Part shown: piece after piece, positions 2,909-58,598 of the stretch
Numbering within the stretch: position 1 is the first letter of the stretch
Layout: every line of letters begins with the position of its first letter
Assembly (NCBI GenBank): GCA_043801745.1
Contig: JAZDLR010000001.1
Location: 24,374 to 88,373 of the forward strand
DNA from: Candidatus Komeilibacteria bacterium
GTDB taxonomy: Bacteria; Patescibacteriota; Patescibacteriia; UBA1558; 2-01-FULL-52-15
Direction: 5' to 3'
DNA: 64,000 nucleotides
The notes under the pieces: model-generated
Database searches by the model: none
Told to the model about the DNA's origin: nothing
What the model saw: the letters and a program-made list of their open reading frames with translations, nothing else
Program-made: the position numbers and the translations under genes

Positions 2909-2948
2909 TTGACCCCGTTAGAGGCGAAGCATCTCTAACGGGGTTGAC
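2909..2948. repeat. palindromic element, copy 1 of the TTGAC-CCCGTTAGA...TCTAACGGG-GTTGAC family
   Basis: ttgaccccgttagag-gcgaagcat-ctctaacggggttgac. The same arms recur at 17137, 20391, 21337, 23957, 28396, 40661 and 48864. Confidence 0.6.
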
Positions 2949-3178: not shown

Positions 3179-3687
3179 CTAACAAGCTGATAAGAAAAAA
3201 CAAAACCAAATCAACATGCAGGCCCTATCTTCATCCAATGGAAGACAAGGCTCTAGCCTCGGGACCCCATGCTTGTTCCGAGGTTTTTGCTTTTTCACTC
3301 CACTCATCTTGACACGATAGCTAAACAGTGGTAGATTTGGCGCTAAATGTTCCTTGGGCATGTGACAAGCAATAGATTGCTGAATGGCAAAGCGCTGTTC
3401 AGAAATCTTCTCGGGCCAGCTGTTGTGGATCAGATTTACCACTATTAACGGCCCCACCGCCTTGAGCTGCTTGTCACAGTAGTATTTGGTACCGCCGGTG
3501 CGTTTGGGAACTGGTATGTGCGGCCACTACCACTACCAACCACCGGTGGTACCGAAAATAAATTTCCGCTGTGCTGCTGGTATTCAGGCCGACGCCATCC
3601 CTGAATTTGGGCCGCGCCAAATCCTGATACCTTCAGTACGGCGGGATATATTTCGCAAAATGCCTGTCCTGTTTTCGGTGCTAGCAA
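3179..3687 (-). pseudogene. possible degraded GC-rich gene remnant (two adjacent-frame ORFs of 92 and 80 aa)
   Basis: Two abutting minus-strand ORFs in different frames with locally elevated GC. No recognisable domain and no good alternative frame. Confidence 0.2.
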
Positions 3688-3918: not shown

Positions 3919-4950
3919 CTACAATAATTTCTGCGTCACATCCTGCGGCGGCGTCAATCCCATATGTTCATAGCCTCGTTCCGTAACCACGCGTCCACGT
4001 GGTGTCCGAGCGAGAAATCCCAACTGCATTAAATAGGGCTCGTAGATTTCTTCAATCGTTCCCATATCTTCCTGCATCGAAGCCGCCAAAGTGGTGAGCC
4101 CTACCGGTCCGCCGCTAAATTTTTCAATCACAGTTAACAATAACTGCCGGTCCAATTCTTCTAAACCCGCCTGATCAATACCTAACATGTCTAGGGCCTC
4201 TTGTGTTTGCCGCAAAGTAATACGTCCGCCGTCACCTTTGACTTGCGAAAAATCGCGCACGCGTTTCAAAATACGGTTGGCGATACGCGGAGTGGCACGG
4301 CTGCGGCGGGAAATTTCTGACGCCGCGTCATCATCCAATGATAAAGCCAATAGTTGCGCCGAACGCCGGACAATCTGACCGATTTCATCTTTGCGGTAAA
4401 AATCTAAACGGTAAGTTACGCCAAAACGGTCACGCAACGGCGCTGATAATAAATTGTAACGCGTGGTCGCGCCAATAATGGTAAAGCGCGGTAAATCTAA
4501 CCGAACTGTTTGCGCACTTGGTCCCTTACCAATAATTAGATCAATAGCGCAATCTTCCATAGCCGGATAAAGAATTTCCTCAATCACTTTATTCAGACGG
4601 TGGATCTCATCAATAAACAAAATATCTCCGCCTTGCATATTAGTCAGGATCGCCGCCAGATCTCCGGCTTTAGTAATAGCCGGCCCAGAAGTTGTCTTGA
4701 TATTAGCTCCCATCTCGCGGGCAATAATATGAGCCAGTGTTGTTTTGCCTAAACCCGGAGGACCATAAATCAAAACATGCTCAATCGGTTCATTGCGCTG
4801 CTTGGCCGCCTGCAAGAAAATATCCAGATTATTCTTCACCTGTTCCTGACCAATGTACTCGGCTAAAAATCTGGGACGCAAAGTCAGGTCCAGAGTCTTA
4901 TCCTCCGGCAGTTCCTTTAAACTCAAAGATTTATGGGGGTCAACAGTCAT
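3919..4950 (-). CDS. ruvB: Holliday junction branch migration ATPase RuvB
   Basis: Walker A motif [15 protein letters not shown] and the RuvB-type AAA+ and winged-helix C-terminus. Length 343 aa. Confidence 0.95.
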
Positions 4951-4995: not shown

Positions 4996-5405
4996 CACGC
5001 CATTGCCATTGTCATTGCGAGACCCATCAGCCTCCGGTTGATGGAGCGAAGCAATCTGTAACTAATCATACCAATCCTTAGCCAAATCATCATATTCAGG
5101 ATTATCTTTTATTATCAGTAACTCTTTATTTTTTCGTGATCCACCCTTTATTTGTTTTTCTCTGGCGAGAGCACAAGCAATATCATCTGTCTCCTCATAA
5201 TAAACCAACTTCCTAATATTGTAGTGGGTCGTGAAACTAGTGGAATCAATTTTATTTTTGTGTTCATAAACTCTGCGTTCGAGATCATTAGTAACACCAA
5301 CGTAAATAACGCTATCAGTAAAATTAGTCATTAAATAGACAAAATAGGATTTAGACATATCTTTACAGATTGCTTCCCCCGCCAGAGGCGGGGTCGCAAT
5401 GACAA
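4996..5405. mobile_element. GIY-YIG mini-element bounded by inverted terminal repeats
   Basis: The left end cattgtcattgcgag-(hairpin)-agcgaagcaatctgtaa (about 5003-5060) is mirrored by the reverse complement of the right end, cattgtcattgcgac-(hairpin)-aagcaatctgtaa (about 5362-5400). The only ORF inside is a GIY-YIG gene. Confidence 0.5.
5062..5358 (-). CDS. GIY-YIG nuclease-domain protein (98 aa)
   Basis: N-terminal YFVYLMTNFTDSVIYVGVTNDLERRVYEHK is a canonical GIY-YIG motif. Confidence 0.8.
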   Translation of the reverse strand: MSKSYFVYLMTNFTDSVIYVGVTNDLERRVYEHKNKIDSTSFTTHYNIRKLVYYEETDDIACALAREKQIKGGSRKNKELLIIKDNPEYDDLAKDWYD

Positions 5406-5488: not shown

Positions 5489-7987
5489 TTATATTAAAAC
5501 CAACGACGTCAGTTCATCCTCCGCTTCCTTGAAACGCATCAGACGCACACCTTGCGTGGCGCGGCCCAAGATAGAAACGGATTTGATTGGCATACGGATA
5601 ACCTGACCCATCTTAGAAATAATAATAGCGTCGCCGTCATGCTTGCTGCTGATAATTCGCACCGCTTTTATCTCACCGGTCTTAGGCGTAACATTAGCTG
5701 TCTTGACGCCTGATCCGCCACGGCCCTGAACTTTATATTCTTTCACCGGCGTACGTTTACCGTAGCCCTTACTCATAACGACTAATAACTGCTCGCCAAC
5801 CTGAATCTGTCCTTCGGGCAACAAATCCATGCCCACGATCAAATCGTTGCCTTTGAGGCGCATACCGCGCACACCGGCCGCGTTACGTCCCATTTCTCGG
5901 ATATCTTTTTCTTTGAAGCGGATAGCCTGACCTTTGGCCGAGATCAACATAATATCATCCTTACCGGTAGAAAGTTTCACCCATTGCAGGCGGTCGCCTT
6001 CTTTCAATTTCAAAGCAATCAAGCCGCTGCGGCGGATATTAGAAAACTTATCAATGCCCACGCGCTTGATCAGACCATGCTCAGTAACCATCACCATATA
6101 CTTGTAAAGTCTGAAATCAGCGCTCTGTAAAATAGAAGAAACTTTTTCTTCCGGGCCAAGCTGCAGGAAATTCACAATATTAGTGCCCTTAGCCGTACGT
6201 GAGGCCGGCGGCACATCATAAGCTTTCAATTGGAACACCCGTCCGCGCGTAGTGAAAAACATCAGATCATCATGAGTATTGGTGGCCAGGAAAAATTCCA
6301 CCTGATCCTCCTCTTTCGTGGTTAAACCGATGACTCCTTTACCGCCCCTGGCCTGACTCTTGAAAGTATCCGGCGGCAAACGTTTAATGTAACCGTCATG
6401 GGTAATGGTGACAACTGCCGGCTCATTGGGAATTAAATCTTCTGTCGTCATTTCTCCGACTCCACCCTTGACTACCCGGGTCCGGCGCTCATCACCAAAT
6501 TTTTCTTTCAAATATTTTAATTCCTCTACGATGATGCTGGTTATCTTCTTCTCGCTCTTAAGAATATCCAGCAACTCCTTTATCAAAGTCTGCTTCTCTT
6601 TTAATTCTCCCTCAATTTTCAAACGCTCCAGATTAGCCAAGCTCTGCAGACGCATTTCCAAAATGGCTGTGGCCTGACGGTCGGACAATTTAAACTTAGT
6701 AATCAGATTAACCTTAGCTACATCCTTATCTTTAGAAGCGCGGATAGTTTTAATCACCGCGTCAATCTTATCCAGGGCCATAACCAAGCCTTCCAAAATG
6801 TGCGCCCGGTCTTTAGCTTTTTCCAGATCAAATTCGGTGCGGCGGCGCACCACCACGCGGCGGTGTTTGAGATATTCTTCTAAAAAGTTCTTCAGCGTCA
6901 ACACCCGGGGCTGTAAGCCGTCAACCAAAGCTAATAAATTAGCGTGAAAAGTTTCTTGCAGCTGTGTATGCTTGTAAAGGTTATTTAATACCTTCTTGGG
7001 ATAAGCATCTTTCTTTAATTCAACTACCACGCGTACGCCGTCGCGGTCAGATTCATCGCGTAAATCTTTGATACCTTCTACTTTCTTATCACGCACCAGG
7101 TTGGCAATCGCTTCCACCAAAGTTGATTTATTAACCTGATAAGGAATGGAAGTAATAATAATACGAAATTGCCCTTCTTTGGTTTCTTCAATTTCCGCTT
7201 CGCCGCGTATGACAATACCGCCCTTACCAGTCGAATAAGTCGCCTTGATATCATTCCAATTATAAATCACGCCGCCAGTCGGAAAATCCGGACCCTTAAC
7301 AAATTCCATCAGGTCATCAACATCACAATCAGGATGGTCAGTTAAATAAATAATGGCGTCAACTAATTCCGTCATATTGTGCGGCGGAATACTAGTCGCC
7401 ATACCGACGGCAATACCGACGCTGCCATTTAATAACAAGTTAGGAGCTTTGGCCGGCAGGACCGAAGGCTCTATTTGTGAACCGTCATAATTGGGAATAA
7501 AGTTGACGGTATTCTTCTCAATATCAGTCAGCATTTCTTCGGCCAAAGGACGCAGCTTGGCTTCGGTATAACGCATGGCCGCCGCACTATCACCGTCCAT
7601 TGATCCGAAGTTGCCCTGACCGTTGACCAACTCATAACGCATGGAGAAATCCTGGGCCATGCGCACCATTGATTCATAAATAGCGCTATCACCATGAGGA
7701 TGGTATTTTCCCATCACTTCTCCGACCACAGTGGCTGACTTACGGAATTTCGCTCCCGGCTTCAAGCCGATATTCCACATGGCGTACAAGACGCGGCGGT
7801 GAACCGGCTTCAAACCATCACGCACATCCGGCAAAGCCCGCGCCACAATAACACTCATGGCATAGTCCAGATAGGATGTCTGCATTTCCTCCACCAACGG
7901 CTGCAACACTAACGTCTCACCACGAGATTGCTCGGGCTTAACAGCGCCGGATTGATTACCTTTATTCTTTTTAATTAATCTGGCCAT
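5489..7987 (-). CDS. gyrA: DNA gyrase subunit A
   Basis: [28 protein letters not shown] with the active-site Tyr region, and C-terminal beta-pinwheel repeats. Length 832 aa. Confidence 0.95.
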
Positions 7988-7999
7988 GATTATAGATAA

Positions 8000-8281
8000 C
8001 TACTGATTGGTAGACGTCGTTAAATCAGTATTAATATTGCCCGTTGCCGCCGGCACTGTAGCAGACTCCGTAGTTGAAGACGTTAAGAAATCTGCGTTCT
8101 GCTGCAACAGCTTAATAAAATCATTATTATTCTTATCCAAGGTTTTCATAATCTCTACTTGACGCTGCTGACTGGGACCAGAGAAAATTCCCAGGCGATA
8201 CAAGGCCCACCAGGTCAATAAACCCACAATAATAACCACCACTAATACAATCTGCAAAACTTTTTGGTTATTGGATTCCAT
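8000..8281 (-). CDS. hypothetical small membrane protein
   Basis: A single N-terminal transmembrane helix (VLQIVLVVVIIVGLLTWWALY) followed by a polar tail. Confidence 0.4.
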   Translation of the reverse strand: MESNNQKVLQIVLVVVIIVGLLTWWALYRLGIFSGPSQQRQVEIMKTLDKNNNDFIKLLQQNADFLTSSTTESATVPAATGNINTDLTTSTNQ

Positions 8282-8284
8282 AAT

Positions 8285-8887
8285 TTAAACTGTTAAGACC
8301 ACGACCCGGGTGTCCTCGGTCGTGACGTCTTTTTTAGTAATTTTTAACTTATCAGTAGTCTCGTGTTTGGCGCCATACTCTTTCAAGAAGGGCTCAACCG
8401 CTTCTAGTCCCTTACTGCCGCTGATTTTGGTATAAGCCGGAATAATAATGCTCGGTTCAATCTGATTAATCATAGCCGCGGCTTCCTTGGGCGTCATCAT
8501 ACCACCACCGCCAACGGGCAAAATTAGCACGTCCACACCTTCTATCTTTTCTAAAATTGGCGCTGGTAAATCTTTAGCTTTGACCGGACCAATCCAGGCT
8601 ACAGTAACACCGCCAATATCCAACCAATAAATTACCGAAGCATGATTATAACCCAGACCATTGACAAACACACCCTTAACTTCATACTCGCCCGGCGTAT
8701 CAATAATAAAAGTGCCCTCACCAATGCAAGCCAGATCATCTTTTGTCCGAGGGTGGCTCAAAAGTAGCAACTCGGCGCTGGTCTTTCTTAATTTAAAATT
8801 TGACTCCGGAACCGTCGGGTCAAATATCACAGAAACGTTGCTTTCTTGTAAGCGGAAACAGCCGTAGCCAGACCAGGAAATTTGCAT
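8285..8887 (-). CDS. MBL-fold metal-dependent hydrolase
   Basis: A 200-aa ORF with beta-lactamase-fold-like motifs (LSHPRTKDD...D, VLILPVGGGG). Confidence 0.55.
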   Translation of the reverse strand: MQISWSGYGCFRLQESNVSVIFDPTVPESNFKLRKTSAELLLLSHPRTKDDLACIGEGTFIIDTPGEYEVKGVFVNGLGYNHASVIYWLDIGGVTVAWIGPVKAKDLPAPILEKIEGVDVLILPVGGGGMMTPKEAAAMINQIEPSIIIPAYTKISGSKGLEAVEPFLKEYGAKHETTDKLKITKKDVTTEDTRVVVLTV

Positions 8888-9008
8888 GAATTTAGGGTCA
8901 AAATTAATCGATTAGAACGGAGTAATATTAGCACATTTTACCTTATGAGTAAAGCCCAAAAACAACCATTCCTTCAATTCCGAGCAGGGCCAATAATTAA
9001 ACCAAGTA

Positions 9009-9037
9009 TTGACTAATATGACTAGTTCGGGTAAACT
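9009..9037 (+). promoter_or_regulatory. sigma70-like promoter for the long rpsA leader
   Basis: TTGACT at 9009-9014, a 17-nt spacer, and TAAACT at 9032-9037. Confidence 0.35.
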
Positions 9038-9240
9038 CAGACCACTTAAATTAAAGACCTAAATTGGCGAGAAACAACGCCAATCCCTGGGCCACTTTGT
9101 CAGGTTGTAGCAAGATAGCTTGTAGGTTGTAGGAAGAATTCCTACTGCCTACAACCTAACGCCTAACGCCTGACCAGGTTAACGATCAACTCCCTCGCGA
9201 GCCATCTGGTCGTGAGGATTTTTTAGAAAGAACTACTATT

Positions 9241-16533: not shown

Positions 16534-16572
16534 GCCCCTCACCAGCCATTGGCTGGTGAGGGGCTTTGGTTT
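16534..16572. terminator. bidirectional terminator
   Basis: gcccctcaccagcc-attg-gctggtgaggggc followed by tttggttt. Confidence 0.6.
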
Positions 16573-16843
16573 ACACGAAGTACCGGCGGAAGACGAGCCC
16601 TCCCCAGATGCCCAGCACAACTCCGGTTAGAAGCAACATCAGCGCCAAGATGCCGTTAATCGCCATTGCCGGCCAGTGCGGTGATTTGGTCGTAGCCAGA
16701 ATAGCAGCACCCATGATCGGCACTGCCCCGCCCGAAATCAAAACAGCACCAAATAATCTGTTTCTCAATTTCGGCCTCCCAGCACCAGAGTCTCCCAATA
16801 TTGCCGCACGGCAACTGCTGCCGCCGCGGCCATCAGTTGACAC
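16571..16843 (-). CDS. hypothetical small membrane protein in a GC-rich island (about 58% GC)
   Basis: The C-terminal hydrophobic stretch INGILALMLLLTGVVLGIWGGLVF. It overlaps the next ORF in another frame, so the gene structure is uncertain. Confidence 0.25.
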   Translation of the reverse strand: MSTDGRGGSSCRAAILGDSGAGRPKLRNRLFGAVLISGGAVPIMGAAILATTKSPHWPAMAINGILALMLLLTGVVLGIWGGLVFRRYFV

Positions 16844-17112
16844 ACCCGTTCAGGACTGGACAGTCGCCCCATCTCCAGACTCTTACTGGCCGATTCGCCA
16901 CCGGCGGCGTGAGGGGGAACAGAACCCAAACCATTCACCGGGTCATCAGAAATCTCCACCTGGGAGATAACTTCAACTCCTGGCGGAGGTACAGAGCCAG
17001 ACGCACCGGTGATTTCTCCGGTGGCATCTCTTACGACGAACACGTAGTCCATGGCTGCCTCTTTCGGTTGAGGGTGTTTAAGAAAAGTACGCAAAACGGT
17101 CACTCTGACCAT
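16765..17112 (-). CDS. hypothetical protein, GC-rich island; may be one frameshifted gene together with 16571..16843
   Basis: The ORF overlaps the downstream ORF by 79 nt in a different frame. No recognisable domain. Confidence 0.25.
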   Translation of the reverse strand: MVRVTVLRTFLKHPQPKEAAMDYVFVVRDATGEITGASGSVPPPGVEVISQVEISDDPVNGLGSVPPHAAGGESASKSLEMGRLSSPERVCQLMAAAAAVAVRQYWETLVLGGRN

Positions 17113-17136
17113 TGGTCAAGAGTATGCCTCAGTTTA

Positions 17137-17175
17137 ATTTGCCAGTCAACCCCATTAGAACATTATATTTTAACG
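17137..17175. repeat. palindromic element, copy 2 (CCCCATTAGA...TTAACGGGG variant)
   Basis: tcaaccccattagaa-cattatatt-ttaacggggttaagc. Confidence 0.5.
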
Positions 17176-17186
17176 GGGTTAAGCAA

Positions 17187-17298
17187 TATTAAATACCTCA
17201 CCTGTCCTCTCCTTCAAAAGGAGAGGAACGCTATTTAAGTGGCTTGCCCCCTACTGTTCCACCATACATCACCCCTCTCCTTTTCTAAGGAGAGGGTT
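17187..17298. mobile_element. MITE-like element with terminal inverted repeats, copy 1
   Basis: cctcacctgtcctctcctt ... aaggagagggttggggtgagg, with internal hairpins ctctccttcaaaaggagag and ctctccttttctaaggagag. Copies 2 and 3 are at 35172 and 62431. Confidence 0.6.
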
Positions 17299-17325: not shown

Positions 17326-19970
17326 TTACTCTAACTTCACCCTAGCATCAGCCAACTTCTTCTTTACTTCGTCCACCACCTTTCGCGGCGCACGGGAAGT
17401 AAAATTACTATCGGCTAATTTGGCTTCTAAATCGGCAATATATTTTTTCAATTCGGTCTGGTCAACGCTTTTCTCAACTCCCTGAATATCGGTAATTAAT
17501 CTAAACCAACTACCTTTTAGTTCCAGCTTTGATTCCACCTGATCTACCAGCTTCACGCGGCCTAGTGTTTCAATAAATGGCTTCAACGAATCGATCTTTG
17601 GCTGACCAATATACTGTACCTGACTAATCGTAGCCGCTGCTACTTTATTTTCCGCGCGGGCATTACGTAATACGGTCACAATTTCCTGCAATTTCTTCAT
17701 CTCTTCCGCTGCCCCGGTTACCGAGCCCCGATTACCGGTTACTGACGCCTCCTCCGGCCACTGCTCAATCATCAACAACTTATCCTTATTCACCTGTCCC
17801 CAAATTACTTCAGTCACAAACGGAATAAACGGATGCCAGAGCTTAAGTAGATTCTGCAACAAATATAATAATAAGCCATCGCGGTCTTTTTTGGTCTCGG
17901 GTTTAATCCGATTCTCAATTTTCGCAAGCTCGAGATACCAATCCGCGAACTTAGACCAGGTAAAATCGTAAAGTTTTTCCGCGGCCAGAGAAAACATTTT
18001 TTCGTTTAATAAATTGGTTACTTCCGTCACTAACCCGGTATACTCGTACCAAATCCAATAATCTATGTCACCGGATAAAACCGGCAGTTCTTCGATTAAT
18101 TTCGGCTGTTCAACACTGGTTAAGATAAAGCGGGAAATATTCCACAGCTTATTAATAAAGTTGCGGTAGCCCTGAATCTTTTCCGTGTAAAATTTAGAGT
18201 CACTGCCAGGACTAATACCGGCAATTAAACTCAAACGCAATGAATCCGCGCCATACCGACGGACAATATCCATCGGATCAATGCCATTACCTAAGGACTT
18301 AGAAAACTTTTTGCCTTCCGTATCGCGCAACATACCGTGGAAATAAACTTCCCGAAACGGAATTTGATCCAGAGCATACGTGGACATCATAATCATGCGT
18401 GCCATCCAGAAAAACAGCAGTTCATAACCCATCTGCATCCAGGCTGTCGGATGATACTGCTTCAAATCAGGAGTTTCTTTTGGCCAGCCGAGAGTGCTGA
18501 AAGTCCAAGTGCCGGAGGAAAACCAAGTATCAAGAGTATCTTCATCTTGCTGCCAGCCATCGCCAATTGGCGGTGTTACTCCGACGTACATTTCGGAGGA
18601 GTTAGTAGAAAGAAGCAAGGAGGAAGGGTTATCTTCCCTAGCTTCTTTCTCCTTTCTCCTGTCCTATACCAAACCGGAATCCTGTGGCCCCACCAAATCT
18701 GCCGGCTAATACACCAATCATGTAAATTATCTATCCACTGTAAATAACTTTTGCTAAAGCGCTCGGGCTGAATCGCAATTATATTCTCTTTCTTGCCACC
18801 GTGCCCAGTAGTTACTGCTTCACGCATCAGATCTTTCAGACTTTTTCCTTTTTTAGGAATCTGCTTATTGACATCAACAAACCACTGCAGTTTAATCTGC
18901 GGTTCCACTGGCACGTTGCCGCGGTCACTGATGGCCACGCGGTGAAGATAATCTTTTTTCACGTCATAAACTAAACCTTTTTTCTCAAGTTTCTGAACAA
19001 TCTTAGCTCGGGCTTCGCTAATGCTTAAACCCGCGAATTCTCTGGCAATAGGCAGCATTTTTCCGTCAAAGCCAATAATCTGCACTTTATCTAATTTATG
19101 CCGTTCAGCAATATCAAAGTCAACGCTGTCATGCCACGGCGTAATGGTCATGGCGCCAGTGCCAAATTCCGGATCAATAACTTTATCCTTAATAACCGTG
19201 GCCTTCACCGGACCGTTAATCCATTCGCAGTCAAAAGTATCACCATGCTTATATTTCCAATAACGCTTATCATCCGGATGCACCACGACATATTTATCGC
19301 CCAATTTAGTTTCCGGCCGGGCCGTAGTAATGATAAACGGCCCAAAGTGAAAATAATATAAGGGAATATTTTCTTCCTGCCAAACCAGTTCATCATCAGA
19401 AACCGTGGTCGCTAGTTTCGGATCCCAGTTAACGATCCGGTGTCCACGGTAAATCAAGTTATCATTATACATCCGGATAAACATCTCATTTACTGCCGCT
19501 GATCTCTGCTCATCAAAAGTATAAGCCAACCGTGACCAATCACAGCTGGTACCCATAATTCTAATTTGCTTTAATATCGTTTCCCGTGATTTATCCGCGT
19601 AATCTTTGATTAGCTGTAATAATTTCTCGCGACCCAATTCTGTCCGTGGATCTTTATATTTACCCGAAGCAATTAATTCTTTCTCTACCCGTGCCTGCGT
19701 GGCTACGGCCGCGTGATCAGTACCGGGCAGTAACAAAGTTTTCTTGCCCAGCATGCGTTGATAGCGGATCTGTAAATCCATCAGAGCATTTTCCATCGCA
19801 TGGCCCAAATGTAAAACTCCGGTCACATTTGGCGGCGGCATCATAATGGCATAGGGCTCACCTAAACTCGTGGCTAATTTATCCGGATTAAAATATCCTG
19901 AACTTTCCCAGATATGATAAATATCTGATTCGTAATTCGCTGGGTTATATATTTTTGGTAATTCTTTCAT
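17326..19970 (-). CDS. valS: valine--tRNA ligase, split by a frameshift into two ORFs (18576..19970 and 17326..18618)
   Basis: The N-terminal ORF carries PPPNVTGVLHLGHA (HIGH) and WCISRQIWWGHRIPVWY. The C-terminal ORF carries DTLDTWFSSG and KFSKSLGN (KMSKS). The frames change within a purine-rich/pyrimidine-rich segment of about 74 nt between the IPVWY and EMYVGV codons. Confidence 0.85.
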
Positions 19971-19988
19971 AGTATTATGTTTGTCCTT

Positions 19989-20053
19989 CCCCTCCTTACT
20001 AAGGAGGGGTAAGGCCCGCCCGCCTGCGAAGCGCAGCGAGTCGGGCGGGGGTG
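19989..20053. repeat. GC-rich nested-hairpin repeat (CCCCTCCTTACTAAGGAGGGG family), copy 1
   Basis: cccctccttactaaggagggg followed by gcccgcccgcc...cgggcgggggtgg. Related copies lie at 54996-55062 and 58600-58685. Confidence 0.5.
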
Positions 20054-20390
20054 GTAAAAAAATAAAACGCCAATAATAACTATTCGCGTTAACGGCCCCG
20101 CACCAAGCGCCGCGCTGGTGCGGGGCAAGCCCCGACAGCTGACGACACTAGATACAGAGAGACACCACCTTTAACAATACTCAATTTTCGCTGTAACGGA
20201 GCGCCCCGGCACGTTCTACTACCCTTGGTAGGGATTCTTCGAGCTACTCTTCCGCACAACTAAGCGGAATTTCTAGGAGACATTACCTAGATCTAGAGTA
20301 TTTATGTTTTCAAATCGACACCCCTTTTAATTTGGCTTTTGGATAGCCATACCGAGGCGCACTTTTAATGTAGCTCTGGGCTTATAAATA

Positions 20391-20432
20391 GTCAACCCCG
20401 TTAGAAACGCATTATTTCTAACGGGGTCAAGC
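20391..20432. repeat. palindromic element, copy 3 (perfect arms)
   Basis: gtcaaccccgttagaaa-cgcatta-tttctaacggggtcaagc. Confidence 0.6.
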
Positions 20433-20506
20433 AAATTTAAAGAGCCCCGCGCATTTCTGCACAGGGCTCCACGGACGTGATGTCCGGAATGGGTTACGTT
20501 TGCTAA

Positions 20507-21127
20507 CTAGCTGGCAGGGCTGATACGGACAGCGGCGTAAAGGACCTCAAATTCCTGCAGCTTATCTACCCATATCGGCCCCACACTCAAACGTCCAGCA
20601 TCTCTATAAATATTGGCCACACGCTCCCGCTCGGCAAAGAGCCACGTAGTTCCGAGAGCAACTACGGTGGCCCTAGGATTGAAACCGGGAAGCGCTCCGA
20701 GAGCCAACAGCTCTTCGGCTCTGGCCGGCCGGTATCCAACACGCCTCATGCGGCACACTGCTTCCCGCGGACTGACGCTCCGCGAGAAGGGGAAAAGCTC
20801 TATGACAACCGGCACCTTTCCCCGGCCCCTGAGTTTGATGTCGAAGGCCGCCGTATCAAGGCAACGGTGCGTGTAACTGCCCAAATCCATCATGTGTGAC
20901 AGATCTAGGGAATAGTCCACAATTACGGAGAAAATCTGACGACCAGCGGTAAGTGATTCGGCAATTAGTTTGGCGATCTTCTTGCGAAGGTCGCCATCCG
21001 TGTGCACATTGCTCAACGCTTCGTCGGTCCTCTCACCGACCAGAGCACGAACGTCCTCGGCGATCCATTTGAACATTTCGCCCAAAACGCCTACATTGCT
21101 CACGAATCCACTCCAAGAACAAGCCAT
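20507..21127 (-). CDS. hypothetical protein in a GC-rich single-gene cassette (about 57% GC)
   Basis: A 206-aa ORF bracketed by palindromic elements at 20391-20432 and 21337-21365. No recognisable motif. Confidence 0.5.
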   Translation of the reverse strand: MACSWSGFVSNVGVLGEMFKWIAEDVRALVGERTDEALSNVHTDGDLRKKIAKLIAESLTAGRQIFSVIVDYSLDLSHMMDLGSYTHRCLDTAAFDIKLRGRGKVPVVIELFPFSRSVSPREAVCRMRRVGYRPARAEELLALGALPGFNPRATVVALGTTWLFAERERVANIYRDAGRLSVGPIWVDKLQEFEVLYAAVRISPAS

Positions 21128-21336
21128 GGTTAGCCTCCTTCGTCGGCGTACCTCGTATCCCGCGCTTTGCAGGACGTAGGCGTACCGCTCTCTGGGGTAA
21201 TCTATATGGAAGCAGTGAAAACTGCCTATTTACTAGCTATGTTGTAATGTGCGTTGAATAACATAATAATAGCATATACATCAAAATCTGTCAATGGTTC
21301 GGCAAGCTCACCACATAAAAAAATGGCTATTATTAG

Positions 21337-21365
21337 CCACGTTAGAGAGCTGGTCTCTAACGGGG
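21337..21365. repeat. palindromic element, copy 4
   Basis: ccacgttagagag-ctgg-tctctaacgggg, embedded in a larger palindrome atggcta...tagccat. Confidence 0.5.
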
Positions 21366-21396
21366 TAGCCATATACTGCTCAAAATATCCCTAATA

Positions 21397-21816
21397 TTAC
21401 CTAATCGCCCTCTCCTTCTCGCCCCTCTGCTCCACCCGCACCCTAATCGCGCCTTTGGGCAAAATCTCTTTTACCTTATCTCCCCACTCGATCAAAACAA
21501 CAGAATCCGGCTGACCCAGATAATCTCCCAGACCAATATTTAATAATTCCTCATGACCAGTCAGACGGTAAGCATCCACGTGCACCAAATTAGTAATTTT
21601 GCCGTGATGGACAGAGTATACTTTCATTAATACAAAAGTCGGACTATTTACCACCTCGGTAATACCTAAGCCCTTGGCTATGCCTTTAGCAATCACGGTT
21701 TTGCCGGCTCCCAAATTTCCTTCCAAAGAAATAACTTCCCCGCCTTTTAAACTGGCGGCGAATTTCTTGGCCCAGGATAGGGTTTGTGTTTCTGATTTAG
21801 AAATGAATTTTTTCAT
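21397..21816 (-). CDS. tsaE: tRNA threonylcarbamoyladenosine biosynthesis ATPase TsaE
   Basis: LEGNLGAGKTVIAKGIAKGLGI...SPTFVLMKVY is the YjeE/TsaE Walker-type motif. Length 139 aa. Confidence 0.8.
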   Translation of the reverse strand: MKKFISKSETQTLSWAKKFAASLKGGEVISLEGNLGAGKTVIAKGIAKGLGITEVVNSPTFVLMKVYSVHHGKITNLVHVDAYRLTGHEELLNIGLGDYLGQPDSVVLIEWGDKVKEILPKGAIRVRVEQRGEKERAIR

Positions 21817-23002: not shown

Positions 23003-23365
23003 TTATCCTCCCATTTGCTGACTCTGTACCTTGATGTGTTCCACCAGCCGTCTTAGATCCGATGAAACTGTCAGTCTGGCAGCCAGTTCCATTCCCGCCC
23101 TGGTCACGATCGGCGCTGTAGCTCCTAAATGAAGCAGTCCACGTTGCCGCAAACTGGCGACCTCTATGTCCAGTTGCCTCAGCCGAAGCAGAGGATCAGT
23201 GGCAAACATTGGTCGTTGCCATAAGCCACCAGCCGTAGGATCTTGTCCTAAGAAATCACCAATCAACTGACGGACTAACCTCCACGGCGGCGAGCGTCCT
23301 TCTTGCTGGCTCAAAGCCAACACACAGAGAACCGCCTCGTCAGTTGAAATCTCCATCACCTGCAA
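23003..23365 (-). CDS. hypothetical protein (GC-rich), winged-helix-like; paralogous to the next ORF
   Basis: A 120-aa ORF with a helix-turn-wing pattern LRQRGLLHLGATAPIVTRAGMELAARL, comparable to LEQRSLIIRHRGCLGWELTEQGIELGQQL in the 23379 ORF. Confidence 0.4.
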   Translation of the reverse strand: MQVMEISTDEAVLCVLALSQQEGRSPPWRLVRQLIGDFLGQDPTAGGLWQRPMFATDPLLRLRQLDIEVASLRQRGLLHLGATAPIVTRAGMELAARLTVSSDLRRLVEHIKVQSQQMGG

Positions 23366-23378
23366 CGCATCACCTCCA

Positions 23379-23798
23379 TCAGTGAGACACTACTCCCGGA
23401 AATCCGTGGGCATCGGCTTTCGGAATGGATGAGCACATGATATCCACCAGCTCACTGATTACGCTTTCCAGAGGAAGACAATCAGCCAACTGCTGACCCA
23501 GTTCAATCCCTTGCTCGGTCAGCTCCCAGCCCAGACAGCCCCGATGACGGATGATCAAACTGCGCTGTTCCAAACTGGTCAGATCCCGCCGCAAGCTGGC
23601 AACCAGCTGCCTTTCATCCGAAGGCAAATAACCGTAGATAGCCAACTCCGTGACTTCGCGTTTGCGGGCGTCGGCAATCAGTGCACGTCCCAGTTCACAC
23701 ATAGTGGGATAAGCCGGTCTTTCCGTCCAAGCCGACAGTTGATAGAACAGGCGCAGAAGCTGCAGCTGACAATCTCCAGCCAAATCCTGAAGAGACAC
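23379..23798 (-). CDS. hypothetical protein (GC-rich), winged-helix-like
   Basis: A 139-aa ORF; see the paralogue at 23003..23365. Confidence 0.4.
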   Translation of the reverse strand: MSLQDLAGDCQLQLLRLFYQLSAWTERPAYPTMCELGRALIADARKREVTELAIYGYLPSDERQLVASLRRDLTSLEQRSLIIRHRGCLGWELTEQGIELGQQLADCLPLESVISELVDIMCSSIPKADAHGFPGVVSH

Positions 23799-23903: not shown

Positions 23904-24452
23904 ATGAGCATAATCATTAAACGCAGCCGCCGCAAAACTCTGCAATTATCCGTTCACCTTGTTAGAAATGGGACTTCTAACGGGGTTAATCCCGCGATCC
24001 AAATAATAGTCCGCGCTCCGCTGACACTGCCGCTGTCACGCATTCAATTATTTGTCCAACAAAAACAAGCCTGGATAAACCGGGCCATTCACAGGCAGAG
24101 CAATCGCCTCCCCTTACCGCATAGCCCGCAGGATTATAAAAAAAACAAATCTCTGGCTAGAAAAATTATCTTGGAACGTCTGAATCAATTAAATGACACC
24201 TATCAGTTACATTGGAAACGGTTGACGATCCGCAACTCCCGCACCCGCTGGGGTAGCTGTTCGCGGCAGGGAAACTTGAATTTCAATTATCGGATTATAT
24301 ATTTGCCACCAGAACTACAGGATTACGTCATTGTGCACGAACTTTGTCATTTGCAGGAGCTAAATCATGGAAAAAAATTCTGGCAGTTGGTGACCAGGGT
24401 CATCCCCAACTTTTCTGTAACACGAAAACAACTTCGACAATACAGTCTATAA
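23904..24452 (+). CDS. DUF45 / COG1451 (YgjP-like) zinc-dependent metallohydrolase carrying an in-frame palindromic-element insertion
   Basis: IIKRSRRKTLQLSV...IIVRAP at the N-terminus, and the zinc site VIVHELCHLQELNHGKKFW (HExxH). Codons for LVRNGTSNGVN are contributed by the palindromic element at 23957-23991. Confidence 0.7.
   Translation: MSIIIKRSRRKTLQLSVHLVRNGTSNGVNPAIQIIVRAPLTLPLSRIQLFVQQKQAWINRAIHRQSNRLPLPHSPQDYKKNKSLARKIILERLNQLNDTYQLHWKRLTIRNSRTRWGSCSRQGNLNFNYRIIYLPPELQDYVIVHELCHLQELNHGKKFWQLVTRVIPNFSVTRKQLRQYSL
23957..23991. repeat. palindromic element, copy 5, inserted in frame within the DUF45 gene
   Basis: ccttgttagaaatgggacttctaacggggttaatc has a degenerate left arm. It lengthens the SV...IIVRAP spacer by about 10-11 codons relative to the family norm. 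Confidence 0.55.
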
Positions 24453-24578
24453 TAATTGTTGTTTGTACCAATCTTGACATATTTATAAAGATATGTTATC
24501 TTTTTTTATTAAAACTTGTTCCAGACAATATCTGGACTTGTCTGGGTTCTTAAAACAGCCACACTCAAGGAGGTTCCA

Positions 24579-24815
24579 ATGACATCGCTTCGCAGTGGCA
24601 TTCCCCGTGGCAAAACCCGGGTCATCGGAGTTGATCTTTTCGAAGGCGGAGACTATCTGGTTGGCGACTACGACAACCCGCAGGATGCCTTTGACGTTGC
24701 TGACGATCACAACAAGAAGCGCACCGGTCCAATGAACGACGTCTACTATGTGTACGACGAAAAGGGTAACTACATTCACGGAAACGAAGATGTAGACCAG
24801 GAGGTCTGCCCGTAA
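24579..24815 (+). CDS. hypothetical small acidic protein (78 aa), upstream partner of the HD hydrolase
   Basis: ATG at 24579 follows the RBS aaggagg; the ORF-track start at 24516 has no RBS. GC about 52-55%. Confidence 0.45.
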   Translation: MTSLRSGIPRGKTRVIGVDLFEGGDYLVGDYDNPQDAFDVADDHNKKRTGPMNDVYYVYDEKGNYIHGNEDVDQEVCP

Positions 24816-24832
24816 CCAGGGAGGGCATAAAC

Positions 24833-25261
24833 ATGGTAACTTTGGAAGACACTATCGTCTTCGCTACGCAACTACACAATGGTCAAAAGGATAAGGCGGG
24901 AGCGCCGTACATCCTCCATGTCCTGCGTGTAATGTTGCAGATGAAAACCGAGCAAGAGCGCATCGTTGCCTTACTGCACGACGTCGCGGAAGACTGCAAC
25001 ATCACCTTAGAGCCGATGATGGGATTCGGCCAAGAGGTGATGGACGCCGTGGACTGTCTTACGAAGCGTCCGCAGGAAGAGCACAACTACGATGCTTTCA
25101 TTCAACGCATTGCCTCGGGTCCGGCACTAGCTCGTCGGGTGAAGATCGCGGATCTGCGGGATAACTCCGACCTCACCCGTTTTGCCCAGCCCACCGAAGC
25201 AGACCGCCGACGTTGTCTGAAATATCATCGAGCGCTCGCTATTCTCACCAGCCTTGAGTAA
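24833..25261 (+). CDS. HD-domain (p)ppGpp hydrolase-like protein (small alarmone hydrolase, RelA/SpoT HD family)
   Basis: GAPYILHVLRV...IVALLHDVAEDCNITLEPMMGFGQEV...LTKR...KIADLRDN matches the SpoT/Mesh1 HD motif series (H..HD..D, KxADRLhN). RBS gggaggg. GC-rich. Confidence 0.7.
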   Translation: MVTLEDTIVFATQLHNGQKDKAGAPYILHVLRVMLQMKTEQERIVALLHDVAEDCNITLEPMMGFGQEVMDAVDCLTKRPQEEHNYDAFIQRIASGPALARRVKIADLRDNSDLTRFAQPTEADRRRCLKYHRALAILTSLE

Positions 25262-28395: not shown

Positions 28396-28434
28396 GTCAA
28401 CCCCATTAGAGATAACTCTTTAATGGGGTCAAGA
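28396..28434. repeat. palindromic element, copy 6
   Basis: gtcaaccccattagag-ataact-ctttaatggggtcaagagcc. Confidence 0.5.
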
Positions 28435-40660: not shown

Positions 40661-40701
40661 CTTGTCCCGTTAGAAGCAACGCTTCTAACGGGACTTGACA
40701 A
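40661..40701. repeat. palindromic element, copy 7 (perfect 13-bp arms)
   Basis: ttgtcccgttagaag-caacg-cttctaacgggacttgacaag. Confidence 0.55.
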
Positions 40702-56272: not shown

Positions 56273-58243
56273 TTATTTTTTTCGACCCCGCAAAACCGCT
56301 ATCTGATCCCGCAGGCGAGCCGCTGTTTCAAATTCCAAATTAGCCGCGGCTAGTTGCATTTGCTGTTCCAGAGAATGTAATAAAAAATCCTTTTCTCCAA
56401 CTGATAAACCTTTAATTTCATCTTTAAATTCAGCTTTTACATCCAAACCCTTCAAAGAGGCGGCTTTAATTGCTTTAATAATTGTCTGCGGCGTTATGTG
56501 GTTCGCCTTGTTATATATTCTCTGCTTATCGCGGCGGCGGTTGGTTTCATCTATAGCCTGTTTCATTGATCTGGTTACTGTATCGGCATACATAATGACT
56601 TTACCTTCTACGTGGCGGGCCGCACGGCCAATGATCTGGATCATGGCTGTGGCACTACGTAAAAATCCTTCTTTATCCGCGTCTAAAATAATTACCAAAG
56701 ACACTTCCGGCAAATCTAATCCTTCGCGCAACAGATTAATGCCGACCAAAACATCATATTTACCTTGCCGCAGATCGCGTAAAATATCTATCCGGTCCAA
56801 AGTATCCACTTCCGAATGCAGATATTGCGCTTTGATATTTTTTTCCAGCAACATTTCGCTAATATCTTCGGCTAATACTTTAGTTATAGTTGTTACCAAA
56901 ACGCGCTGACCATGGCTGACCCTGGCGTTTATTTCTTTAATCACGTCCTCCACCTGACCGGTTGTTCCGCGTACTTCAATTTCCGGATCTAATAAACCGG
57001 TTGGACGCACAACTTGTTCTACTACTTGTTTAGACAAACCCAGCTCATACTGATCCGGCGTGGCTGACATATAAACCGTCTGTCCGGTCCTCTGCCGGAA
57101 CTCATCATAATTCAACGGCCGGTTATCCAAAGCGCTGGGCAAACGCCAGCCGTAATCTATCAACATTTTCTTTCGCGCCTGATCACCGTTATACATGCCG
57201 CGGATCTGCGGCAGAGTCATATGTGACTCATCAACGACCAGAAAAAAATCATCAGGAAAATAACCTAGTAGTGTCTCCGGCGGTTCTCCGGCCTGCCGGC
57301 CGGCCAAATGCCGCGAATAATTCTCAATGCCGTTGCAATAACCAACTGACCGGATCATTTCCAGATCATACTTGGTCCTTTCTTCAATGCGCTGAGCTTC
57401 AATCAGCTTATTGTGCTGCTTAAAATATTGAATCCGTTCTATTAGCTCGGTTTCAATATTGGGCAGGGCTTTCTTAATATTAACTTCCGGCGCTAAGAAA
57501 TGTTTAGCCGGAAAGATGCTTAGATCTTTCGGTGTTTCTAAAATATCATGAGTTAAATAATGAACTTTTTCAATTTTATCTAACTTGTCGCCATCAAAAC
57601 GCAGACGGTAGTAATGTTCATCTTCGGCGCTAGGAAATATTTCCATATTTTCACCCTTAACCGTGAAATTACCGCGCGTTAAAACCGTGTCATTGCGGTT
57701 ATATTGTAAAAAATTCAGTTGATTTAATAATTTATAGCGGGCATAAGTCTTGCCAATCTCTAATGTAATGCGCACCTGACTATAATCTTCCGGCGAACCT
57801 AATCCGTAAATACACGATACAGACGCGACAATTAAAACATCGCGCCGAGTGAGTAAGGCCTGCGTGGCTGCATGCCGCAAGCGGTCAATTTCTTCATTGA
57901 TCTGCGTTTCCTTGTCTATGTGCGTGTCAGACGCCGGTATATAAGCCTCGGGCTGATAATAATCATAGTAGGAAACAAAATAATGCACGGCATTATTGGG
58001 AAAGAAATCCTGAAACTCCGAAGCCAGCTGCGCGGCCAAAGTTTTATTATGTGAAATAACTAAAGTCGGTTTGTTAATTTTGGCCACAACATTGGCAATA
58101 GTAAAGGTCTTACCCGAACCAGTTACTCCCAAAAGAGTTTGATCGCGGTAGCCCTTTTTCAAACCAGTAGTCAATTGTAAAATCGCACTCGGCTGATCCC
58201 CAGTGGGTTTGAATTTGGCCTTAAGACTAAACTTATCTGCCAT
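56273..58243 (-). CDS. uvrB: excinuclease ABC subunit B
   Basis: GDQPSAI...GVTGSGKTFTIANV and the C-terminal UVR domain QMQLAAANLEFETAARLRDQI. Length 656 aa. Confidence 0.95.
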   Translation of the reverse strand: MADKFSLKAKFKPTGDQPSAILQLTTGLKKGYRDQTLLGVTGSGKTFTIANVVAKINKPTLVISHNKTLAAQLASEFQDFFPNNAVHYFVSYYDYYQPEAYIPASDTHIDKETQINEEIDRLRHAATQALLTRRDVLIVASVSCIYGLGSPEDYSQVRITLEIGKTYARYKLLNQLNFLQYNRNDTVLTRGNFTVKGENMEIFPSAEDEHYYRLRFDGDKLDKIEKVHYLTHDILETPKDLSIFPAKHFLAPEVNIKKALPNIETELIERIQYFKQHNKLIEAQRIEERTKYDLEMIRSVGYCNGIENYSRHLAGRQAGEPPETLLGYFPDDFFLVVDESHMTLPQIRGMYNGDQARKKMLIDYGWRLPSALDNRPLNYDEFRQRTGQTVYMSATPDQYELGLSKQVVEQVVRPTGLLDPEIEVRGTTGQVEDVIKEINARVSHGQRVLVTTITKVLAEDISEMLLEKNIKAQYLHSEVDTLDRIDILRDLRQGKYDVLVGINLLREGLDLPEVSLVIILDADKEGFLRSATAMIQIIGRAARHVEGKVIMYADTVTRSMKQAIDETNRRRDKQRIYNKANHITPQTIIKAIKAASLKGLDVKAEFKDEIKGLSVGEKDFLLHSLEQQMQLAAANLEFETAARLRDQIAVLRGRKK

Positions 58244-58598
58244 TATTTAAATGCCGTTTAATAATTTCAATCACTTCTTCCGTATTTTCATAAACTTCAC
58301 CATTACTGAAACGAATTACTTTAATGCCGTATAACTCAATATACTTTTGCCGCTCATTATCCATTTCCTCTGCTCCATCTACTAAATGACTTTCGCCGTC
58401 AATCTCAATTGCCAGCTTAACCTCTGGACAATAAAAATCCACCACATACTTTCCAATTCCATGCTGTCGTCTAAATTTATATCCGTTCAACTGACTACCC
58501 TTGAGTCGTAACCACAGCATTATCTCTGCCGGCGGCAGTGAGCTCCGTAAATCTTTACGTAAAGATTTGAATCGGTGTCGATTATATAATTTTGTCAT
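58233..58598 (-). CDS. DUF559 / Vsr-like endonuclease-domain protein
   Basis: KYVVDFYCPEVKLAIEIDGESH is the DUF559 (PD-(D/E)xK-like) signature. Length 121 aa, with the start overlapping the uvrB stop. Confidence 0.65.
   Translation of the reverse strand: MTKLYNRHRFKSLRKDLRSSLPPAEIMLWLRLKGSQLNGYKFRRQHGIGKYVVDFYCPEVKLAIEIDGESHLVDGAEEMDNERQKYIELYGIKVIRFSNGEVYENTEEVIEIIKRHLNNGR

Follow-up and report, generated by a model that had tools for sequence, protein, structure and literature searches.

A GC-rich gene on the minus strand lies between tsaE and valS in a 64,000-nucleotide (nt) stretch of contig JAZDLR010000001.1 from Candidatus Komeilibacteria bacterium (hereafter called the window, meaning this stretch at its full length), and a palindrome stands on either side of it. 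The gene is an open reading frame (ORF) of 206 codons and will be referred to as ORF206. We asked whether the palindromes are the two ends of a cassette that carries ORF206, as the original prediction, made from the DNA letters alone, had proposed, or whether gene and palindromes came to this place separately. Overall, we consider it probable that two unrelated things stand side by side here: ORF206 would be a horizontally acquired gene unit of a family that includes targets of diversity-generating retroelements (DGRs), and the palindromes would be independent copies of an element that resembles a miniature inverted-repeat transposable element (MITE).

ORF206 is a member of a large family that includes DGR targets

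The searches by hidden Markov model and by structure that the original prediction had suggested were carried out. As anticipated there, ORF206 has no recognizable domain: it gave no match to Pfam, NCBIfam or PHROGs and, in PADLOC, only a sub-threshold match to BrxB (E = 0.047). A word-indexed search returned five homologues, and a HMMER profile search recovered a large family of 6828 cluster representatives at E ≤ 1e-3 (4310 at E ≤ 1e-10). Family members are mostly ∼200 amino acids (aa) long, and some have two or three copies of the C-terminal domain. The source names, where given, are only "hypothetical protein", Komeilibacteria or Patescibacteria group, and a Pfam scan of 10 members revealed nothing significant. 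When ORF206 was compared with its homologues P0184 and P0198, the N-terminal 60 residues were well conserved and the C-terminal third was almost unrelated.

Two of the homologues, P0004 (31% identical over 100% of ORF206) and P0178 (25% identical over 80% of ORF206; family profile E = 1e-75), are recognized as DGR targets because reverse transcriptase (RT)/Avd cassettes adjoin them and the mismatches in their repeat pairs are adenine-specific. At the P0004 locus (L182), the last 135 nt of the gene (variable repeat, 3397-3531) recur 685 nt downstream (template repeat, 4082-4216) with 84% identity, and 21 of the 22 mismatches, counted on the alignment, fall at template adenines; the template copy codes for a peptide rich in Asn, and a bAvd gene adjoins it. 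The P0178 locus (L208) has the same arrangement, with 15 of 17 mismatches at template adenines and with bAvd and RVT_1 adjacent; of the two loci, L208 is the only one in which RVT_1 was called beside the repeat pair. In other genomes, the family supplies the variable protein of a DGR, the last ∼45 codons of which are rewritten from an adenine-rich template repeat by the RT/Avd pair. A DGR clade (clade 2) is restricted to Patescibacteria, and DGR variable regions are located in folds of the C-type-lectin (C-Lec) kind (Roux et al. 2021, PMC8144416).

The AlphaFold (AF2) model of ORF206, built from a 66-sequence alignment (predicted local distance difference test score, 90.3), begins with two long helices at the N-terminus and continues in an alpha/beta domain. 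The best-probability Foldseek matches of this model were C-type lectins and herpesvirus UL45, and a C-type-lectin-like C-terminal domain is probable as far as the model goes. ORF206 would be a protein that binds a ligand. ORF206 resembles the known C-type-lectin variable proteins of DGRs (Mtd, TvpA, AvpA) and those of DGR clade 2 in that it is a full-length homologue of two diversified proteins, in that the variable part is C-terminal (the 3′ ∼135 nt of the two homologues) and, though weakly, in its fold matches. It differs from them in that the whole gene is GC-rich relative to its host, and not just the variable region; further, the solved variable proteins have no sequence match to the family, which has no Pfam model, and a search of the PDB with the family profile found designed helical repeats only. 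Four further observations count against reading ORF206 as a DGR variable protein. First, no template repeat for ORF206 DNA was found within the 64-kb window. Second, the same 64 kb contain no RT or Avd, and tblastn with the RT and Avd of L208 gives nothing better than E = 0.7. Third, the last 150 nt of ORF206 are not depleted of adenine (A = 0.19 versus 0.21 in the first 60% of the gene); in nine of nine homologues they are (A = 0.10-0.17 versus 0.21-0.27 earlier in the gene). Fourth, the C-type lectin fold matches are weak (Foldseek E ≥ 0.06, TM-score 0.3-0.45; PDB, BFVD). We place ORF206 with the DGR variable proteins as a kind, with membership incomplete for the window copy.

A DGR that acts on ORF206 locally was rejected, as no template repeat, RT or Avd was found in the window. 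That ORF206 is no orphan but the active, remote target of a DGR at some other place in the genome is a possibility that we take seriously and yet judge unlikely. Remote DGR targets exist and are missed by contig-limited surveys (PMC8144416), ORF206 is homologous over its full length to the two diversified proteins, and a small GC-rich hairpin, likened to the hairpins that follow DGR variable regions, stands after its stop codon. Further, seven of the nine homologues have no template repeat nearby, yet the variable region is adenine-depleted in all nine. Against this stand the adenine content of the last 150 nt of ORF206, its C-terminal motif LYAAVRI, which departs from the family consensus RFxAVRK, and the negative results within the 64 kb; a second frame matching the ORF206 family is also absent from the window. 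Overall, ORF206 is most likely an orphaned, long-idle or remote target, to judge from a sequence in which the signs of current diversification are absent.

We also noted features in the 3′ flanks of family genes. About 60 nt past the stop codon (L001, L003, L182, L183, L184, and L208), a repeated C(C)TTGG motif and a GGAC...GTCC hairpin are conserved between otherwise unrelated loci; the window copy is without the CTTGG repeats.

The palindromes belong to a dispersed element with MITE-like properties

Both palindromes were found where they had been predicted, so that hairpins do bracket the gene between valS and tsaE. The downstream one (copy A) lies 75 nt past the ORF206 stop codon and has perfect 13-bp arms (20395-20407 and 20415-20427) with 7 nt between them; its folding energy is -23.7 kcal/mol (z = -7.2 versus shuffled sequences). 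The upstream one (copy B) lies 210 nt upstream of the ORF206 ATG and has arms that are 92% complementary (21337-21348 and 21354-21365; z = -4.8 versus shuffled sequences), nested in a larger ATGGCTA...TAGCCAT palindrome (21324-21330 and 21366-21372). The half-site of this element (a 12-mer with ≤2 mismatches) occurs 21 times in the window versus 6.3 times expected, a count reached in 0 of 100 shuffles, and the window holds seven paired hairpin copies (Table 1). Perfect 4-bp repeats flank five of the seven, one of them only if a left end shorter by one base is assumed, and the flanks of the other two match at three of four positions.

Beyond the window, the exact pattern CCCCRTTAGA-N5-9-TCTAAYGGGG was found on at least 120 metagenome contigs (GC 0.32 to 0.66) and 20 IMG/VR viral contigs. 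The ends are 10-bp terminal inverted repeats (CCCCGTTAGA...TCTAACGGGG), common to short (25-31 bp) and long (50-160 bp) versions; the inner stem and loop vary with pairing kept, and the loop or spacer measures 5 to 9 nt. Perfect 4-bp direct repeats flank 42 of 121 metagenome copies (4.1 expected; at most 11 in 1000 shuffles), and these repeats are variable in sequence with a YNNR bias. The 50-160-bp versions also have perfect 4-bp repeats and form multi-copy subfamilies, and some hold nested short copies. The element was absent from the 57 loci of related and other genomes that we examined. Among proteins encoded on the element-bearing contigs, 64 of 69 match Patescibacteria reference loci, which suggests that many of these contigs have hosts in the Candidate Phyla Radiation (CPR).

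The YgjP-like protein of the window has 11 extra residues (VHLVRNGTSNG) that correspond to a 29-nt palindrome plus 4 nt and are absent in five relatives (L005-L009). Copy A would have gone into the TTGA of the -35 box of valS, which the duplication would then have regenerated: a single TTGAC stands at this place in L009 and L005, against TTGA-element-TTGA in the window, and the GGGG-TTGACT-17-TACATT of valS is kept intact. Similarly, copy B would have inserted in the tsaE terminator hairpin, with the duplication regenerating a stem arm; a terminator scan still detects GTGGCTA-ATAA-TAGCCAT followed by T7 because the duplicated GCTA rebuilds that arm. Like copy A, those at 2913 and 40665 occupy -35 boxes, here of promoter-like sites. 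The element probably persists in promoters and terminators because the duplication leaves them working.

Another explanation is that the palindromes are native, non-mobile punctuation (terminators, operators or DNA-uptake sequences), in which case any gene that stands between transcription-unit boundaries would be bracketed by them. Six of the seven window copies do lie just downstream of a stop codon, three abut -35 boxes, the stems are stable, copy A passes a simple terminator scan, and the window encodes a PilB-type ATPase, which is consistent with competence. We nevertheless regard this explanation as improbable. The ygjP copy is an exact 33-nt insertion with an empty site in five relatives, the variable 4-bp direct repeats are far above chance, the same ends recur in longer and nested versions, and the related loci are without the element. 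Further, ORF206 and tsaE each have a terminator of their own besides the element, a separate hairpin with a T-rich tail (TTAAATTT for ORF206 and T7 for tsaE, with copy B inside the latter terminator).

We thus return to the reading of the palindromes as non-autonomous, MITE-like copies, with a minimal form of 25-31 bp and a 4-bp target duplication at YNNR sites. The element has every defining property of a MITE except a known parent, and transposition would presumably be by a transposase acting in trans. Two results speak against this reading: perfect duplications were seen at only about a third of the short copies, and ∼0.9 Mb of element-bearing DNA contain no autonomous element with the same ends. 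When end pairs 400-4000 bp apart were considered, none enclosed a transposase in any locus examined, and the single long pair (L155) encloses ordinary genes. No protein family recurs beside the element copies, and none of the 36 window ORFs scanned matches a transposase, integrase, RT or Y1-transposase family.

Further observations concern the element in coding sequence and its age. In frame, it adds a peptide P-V-R-x-x-x-S-N-G, as in the YgjP-like protein of the window and, in L155, in an RsmA/KsgA-like protein and another gene (6088-6118, 8208-9119); only the TAG-free frame was seen among the in-frame copies. The element is retained at an orthologous site in three diverged contigs (L078 3834, L102 4786, and L130 2683), where the element itself is diverging, and some copies are therefore likely to be old and stably inherited. 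An association of the element with GC-rich islands was considered and is not claimed: 4-5 of the seven copies adjoin such an island, but gaps of this kind make up about a quarter of the intergenic DNA.

Several known systems invite comparison. Cyanobacteria reportedly contain very small mobile dispersed repeats (Elhai et al. 2008, Genome Research, cited in PMC3116915), which are palindromic, ∼20-30 nt long, prone to nested insertion and present inside genes as well; the window element would resemble them in these respects, above all in size, and differs in sequence and host group. Like the Rickettsia palindromic elements (PMC10969869), the window element is a dispersed non-coding palindrome that occurs between genes and in frame within genes, which it leaves unbroken; unlike them, it measures 25-31 bp rather than about 150 bp, has a clear 4-bp duplication and occurs on many metagenomic contigs of widely ranging GC and on viral contigs. 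Of the systems compared, these elements come nearest to it in tolerating insertion in frame. The MITE review that covers the Rickettsia elements (PMC10969869) does not mention Patescibacteria, and a literature search by element sequence yielded chance primer matches only. Repetitive extragenic palindromic (REP) sequences and REPINs, which are mobilized by RAYT transposases, are short extragenic hairpins that often follow genes and may terminate transcription or stabilize RNA; they have no target duplications and have a conserved 5′ tetranucleotide (PMC3116915). The window element shares with them the short extragenic hairpin often just after genes and differs in its flanking 4-mers, which are variable and duplicated, and in that no Y1-transposase (RAYT) occurs among the 36 window ORFs scanned. 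We also rejected a hairpin of the IS200/IS605 or REP type, as hairpins of those types do not duplicate variable 4-mers.

The gene is, by parsimony, an insertion relative to distant relatives

We compared 57 loci, anchored on TsaD, from species-representative genomes; the relatives among them are distant (TsaD 53-79% identical). The original prediction had pointed to valS/tsaE synteny in relatives as a check for an insert, and relatives without the gene were indeed found. In L009 (TsaD 73% identical), tsaE ends in a stop codon that overlaps the -35 box of TTGACG-17-TACATT, which is followed by a ∼330-nt leader and then by valS, with no intervening gene. In L059 (TsaD 53% identical), 83 bp separate tsaE from valS. 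In L005 (TsaD 77% identical), the same promoter lies ∼70 nt after tsaE and is followed by a related leader, where the contig ends. Thus, in all three, tsaE leads directly to valS or to its promoter and leader. In L006-L008, another gene follows tsaE, and ORF206 is absent. The alignment of the window with L009 stops at the tsaE stop codon and restarts exactly past copy A, and the window therefore has ∼1 kb extra. Further, the closest ORF206 homologue, P0184 (41% identical), sits in L009's own assembly at another locus, where its neighbors are an S1-domain gene and a Toprim primase; at that place, the window has just a 353-bp gap.

On this comparison, we read ORF206 as an inserted gene that separates the stop codon of tsaE from the valS promoter, and by parsimony the members of the family would have inserted at differing sites in related genomes. 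ORF206 would be a horizontally acquired, self-contained gene unit that landed at this point, a route of arrival that we infer. The gene had been described as GC-rich, and its composition is indeed foreign to its surroundings (GC 0.55 versus 0.43-0.45 for valS, tsaE, and tsaD; GC at third codon positions (GC3), 0.60). However, GC-richness is a family trait and, taken alone, weak evidence of recent transfer: ORF206 and the other nine family genes examined all exceed their host locus in GC (GC3 0.60-0.86).

It might be argued that this locus had ORF206 from ancestral times and that the relatives lost it, in which case the composition of ORF206 would reflect a family-specific constraint and not transfer. 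The family-wide GC-richness in every host examined, which deprives composition of the force of proof, would fit this argument, and the direction of change, gain versus loss, rests on parsimony among relatives that are all distant, a point that weighs against our own reading. We consider ancestry with loss quite improbable, as tsaE stands directly before the valS promoter or leader in three separate relatives, in one of which stop codon and -35 box overlap, as L006-L008 have a different gene after tsaE and no ORF206 and as the L009 genome holds its family member at another locus.

The palindromes do not appear to delimit a cassette

The view of the two palindromes as the ends of one cassette was not upheld. 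Their outer flanks differ (TCAA versus TAGC) and each copy has its own 4-bp duplication, and we therefore conclude that the two were not mobilized together; the mismatch of the flanks also leads us to reject a composite transposon made up of copies A and B. Further, the element is absent from all ten homologous cassettes examined (L001, L003, L182-L184, L205, and L208), and none of the window's five other copies has such a partner, one of them being in frame within ygjP. When six intergenic copies were placed at random by gap length, at least one gene was bracketed in 40% of the trials, and the bracketing is thus unremarkable in statistical terms. One observation pulls the other way: three consecutive occupied gaps (around valS, ORF206, and tsaE) were obtained in 4% of the trials (P about 0.04, post hoc). 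This mild clustering could indicate a local link between the element and the region, for example local hopping; it could also simply reflect the extra non-coding DNA created by the insertion.

In an integron, a cassette consists of a promoterless ORF with an attC site (RYYYAAC...GTTRRRY, 57-141 bp) at its 3′ end, and intI is located nearby. The ORF206 locus resembles such cassettes, and pdif modules, in that a single gene with an imperfect palindrome stands among unrelated genes. It differs in the length of the hairpin (29-31 bp), in the half-site order, in the promoter of ORF206 (11 of 12 consensus positions) and in that no integrase family is represented among the 36 window ORFs scanned; an attC-like site is rejected on the grounds of half-site order and length. 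That the palindromes are recombination sites that delimit and mobilize the gene, in the way of the attC sites of integrons or the pdif modules found on Acinetobacter plasmids, is very improbable: the insertion relative to relatives, the hairpin on each side and the mild clustering are what it would explain, and against it stand the separate duplications and unlike outer flanks, a loop or spacer of 5 to 9 nt that is unlike a fixed recombinase core, a half-site order (GTTAGA...TCTAAC) that is the reverse of that of attC, the gene's own promoter, the homologous cassettes without hairpins, the in-frame copy within ygjP and the absence of any integrase or recombinase family match in the 36 ORFs.

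Anatomy of the ORF206 transcription unit and its surroundings

ORF206 is a complete transcription unit that consists of a promoter, a 5′ untranslated region (5′UTR), a ribosome-binding site, an ORF and a terminator (Table 1). The extent and strand of the 206-aa ORF are as originally described, and only the GC content differs, having been given as about 57% and measured as 0.55. The ribosome-binding site, GAAGGAGG, stands upstream of the ATG at 21127. The NCBI entry for this gene (P0001, from a Candidatus Komeilibacteria metagenome-assembled genome) has 166 aa and begins at a GTG that is codon 41; this call looks truncated because GAAGGAGG precedes the ATG at 21127 and homologues align from residue 8. 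The 5′UTR is ∼130 nt long. The promoter layout recurs in L205/L209 and in further family members, and the promoter together with the 44-nt 5′UTR core is ∼93% identical to the counterparts of P0184/P0198 (L205, L209), whose proteins are 41% identical to ORF206. This difference suggests that the core is a constrained cis-regulatory RNA or a recombining promoter/UTR module. We also note in the core a direct repeat of GGTACGCC, present twice, around ACGTCC...GCAAAGCGC...GGATACG (the L205 counterpart lies at 8850-8900, and L209 has one also). An Rfam search of 19900-21450 revealed no family for the 5′UTR. On the tsaE side of the locus, the next gene in the ORF listing is tsaD.

Table 1. Positions of the ORF206 transcription unit, its neighbors and the paired copies of the palindromic element in the window
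Feature	Position	Strand	Remarks
ORF206	20507..21127	-	From the ORF listing; 206 aa; helical hairpin at the N-terminus and C-terminal alpha/beta domain
ORF206 promoter	21266..21294	-	Sigma-70-type TTGACA-17-TATTAT with TG extension; 11/12 consensus matches
ORF206 5′UTR conserved core	21144..21187	-	CGGTACGCC-TACGTCC-TGCAAAGCGCGGGATACGAGGTACGCCG; 44 nt
ORF206 intrinsic terminator	20441..20470	-	13-bp stem, then T-rich tail TTAAATTT
Small GC-rich hairpin	20472..20486	-	CGGAC-ATCAC-GTCCG; 21 nt past the ORF206 stop; likened to hairpins after DGR variable regions
tsaE, upstream neighbor	21397..21816	-	Pfam TsaE, E = 2.3e-37
tsaE intrinsic terminator	21317..21372	-	Inferred ancestral hairpin ATGGCTA-ATAA-TAGCCAT (7 bp), then T7
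valS, downstream neighbor	17326..19970	-	Identified by translation and homologous ORFs in relatives
valS promoter	20367..20395	-	TTGACT-17-TACATT; conserved as TTGACG-17-TACATT in L009 and L005
Conserved valS leader, ∼330-400 nt	19971..20366	-	Aligns with L009 2690-2995 and L005 11620-12149
Element copy	2913..2943		Target duplication TTGA/TTGA; abuts promoter-like site TTGACT-17-TAAAAT (in its -35 box)
Element copy downstream of valS	17150..17178		Flanks TCAA/TTAA
Element copy A	20396..20426 (with repeats 20392..20430)		TCAA/TCAA; in the TTGA of the valS -35 box
Element copy B	21337..21365 (with repeats 21334..21369)		TAGC/TAGC if the left end is one base short; in the tsaE terminator between stem arm and loop
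Element copy inside ygjP-like ORF	23957..23985		Flanks TTCA/TTAA; exact 33-nt (11-aa) in-frame insertion
Element copy	28401..28428		Target duplication TCAA/TCAA
Element copy upstream of the 16S rRNA gene	40665..40693		Target duplication CTTG/CTTG; in the -35 box of a TTGACA-17-TAAACT site

Other observations in the window

The valS gene of the window is split into two ORFs in different frames by a 62-nt insertion (18591-18652), which consists of 58 nt plus a 4-nt direct repeat (GAAA) and has internal inverted repeats. Excising it restores "...VWYRTGE|MYVGVTPP...", and valS of L059 is a single ORF. The inserted sequence is unique in the window and in the loci examined, and it could be a second kind of small insertion, the mark of a pseudogene, a split ValRS or an assembly error. 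The valS leader and the promoter TTGAC(T/G)-17-TACATT precede valS in three genomes, and a T-box-like GGTGGT stretch was seen in the leader by eye; Rfam yielded nothing for the leader at E ≤ 1, whether for the window or for L009 and L005.

Further GC-rich patches (0.49-0.57) are located at 1660-2808, 16571-17238, 23003-23798, and 24516-25261, and their ORFs have no Pfam matches or sub-threshold ones. The exception among these ORFs is an HD_4-like one (24833-25261), which scores 26.5 bits, just below the Pfam cutoff of 27.2. For the ORF of 120 aa at 23003-23365, L005 and L006 have counterparts in the corresponding place that are 29% identical to it. Several of the patches adjoin element copies, an association that is not significant. 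Finally, two small AT-rich ORFs are possible selfish or homing-type genes: the one at 5062-5358 (GC 0.32) is for a GIY-YIG domain protein, and the one at 58233-58598 (GC 0.37) is for a protein like DUF559 endonucleases.

Discussion

We conclude that the locus is best explained by two known kinds of thing that are adjacent by happenstance, and not by a new cassette system. A gene with flanking repeats in a reduced CPR genome may be mistaken for an integron-like or new mobilization system, and this one is not such a system.

A broader proposal can be put forward tentatively, and we hold it to be somewhat short of probable as a whole. The element would represent a previously undescribed family of ultra-small transposable hairpins. 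Their minimal unit, 25-31 bp long, would be a pair of abutting inverted repeats of 10-13 bp each and would duplicate 4 bp at YNNR sites; the hairpins would circulate among Patescibacteria and their phages, rebuild the -35 boxes and terminator arms into which they insert and, in one reading frame, be tolerated within proteins. If this is true, then the element could spread through very compact genomes at little cost and serve as portable transcriptional punctuation. Separately, promoter-5′UTR-ORF units of the family with DGR targets may change locus without taking their retroelement along. In any case, many uncultivated genomes and viral contigs contain an element of ∼30 bp with target duplications, located in genes, promoters and terminators; it is useful as a marker of recent insertion and could give rise to errors of annotation, for example extra loops of 11 aa.

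ORF206, which had no recognizable relatives, now has its place in an unannotated family of very large size, with clusters in the thousands and no Pfam model, members of which are hypermutated by DGRs. The family has two odd traits, namely its GC-richness relative to every host examined and, in one close comparison, a 5′UTR core that is more conserved than the protein. Its placement also gives the family a testable role: its members may serve in the recognition of ligands or host surfaces by episymbiotic bacteria.

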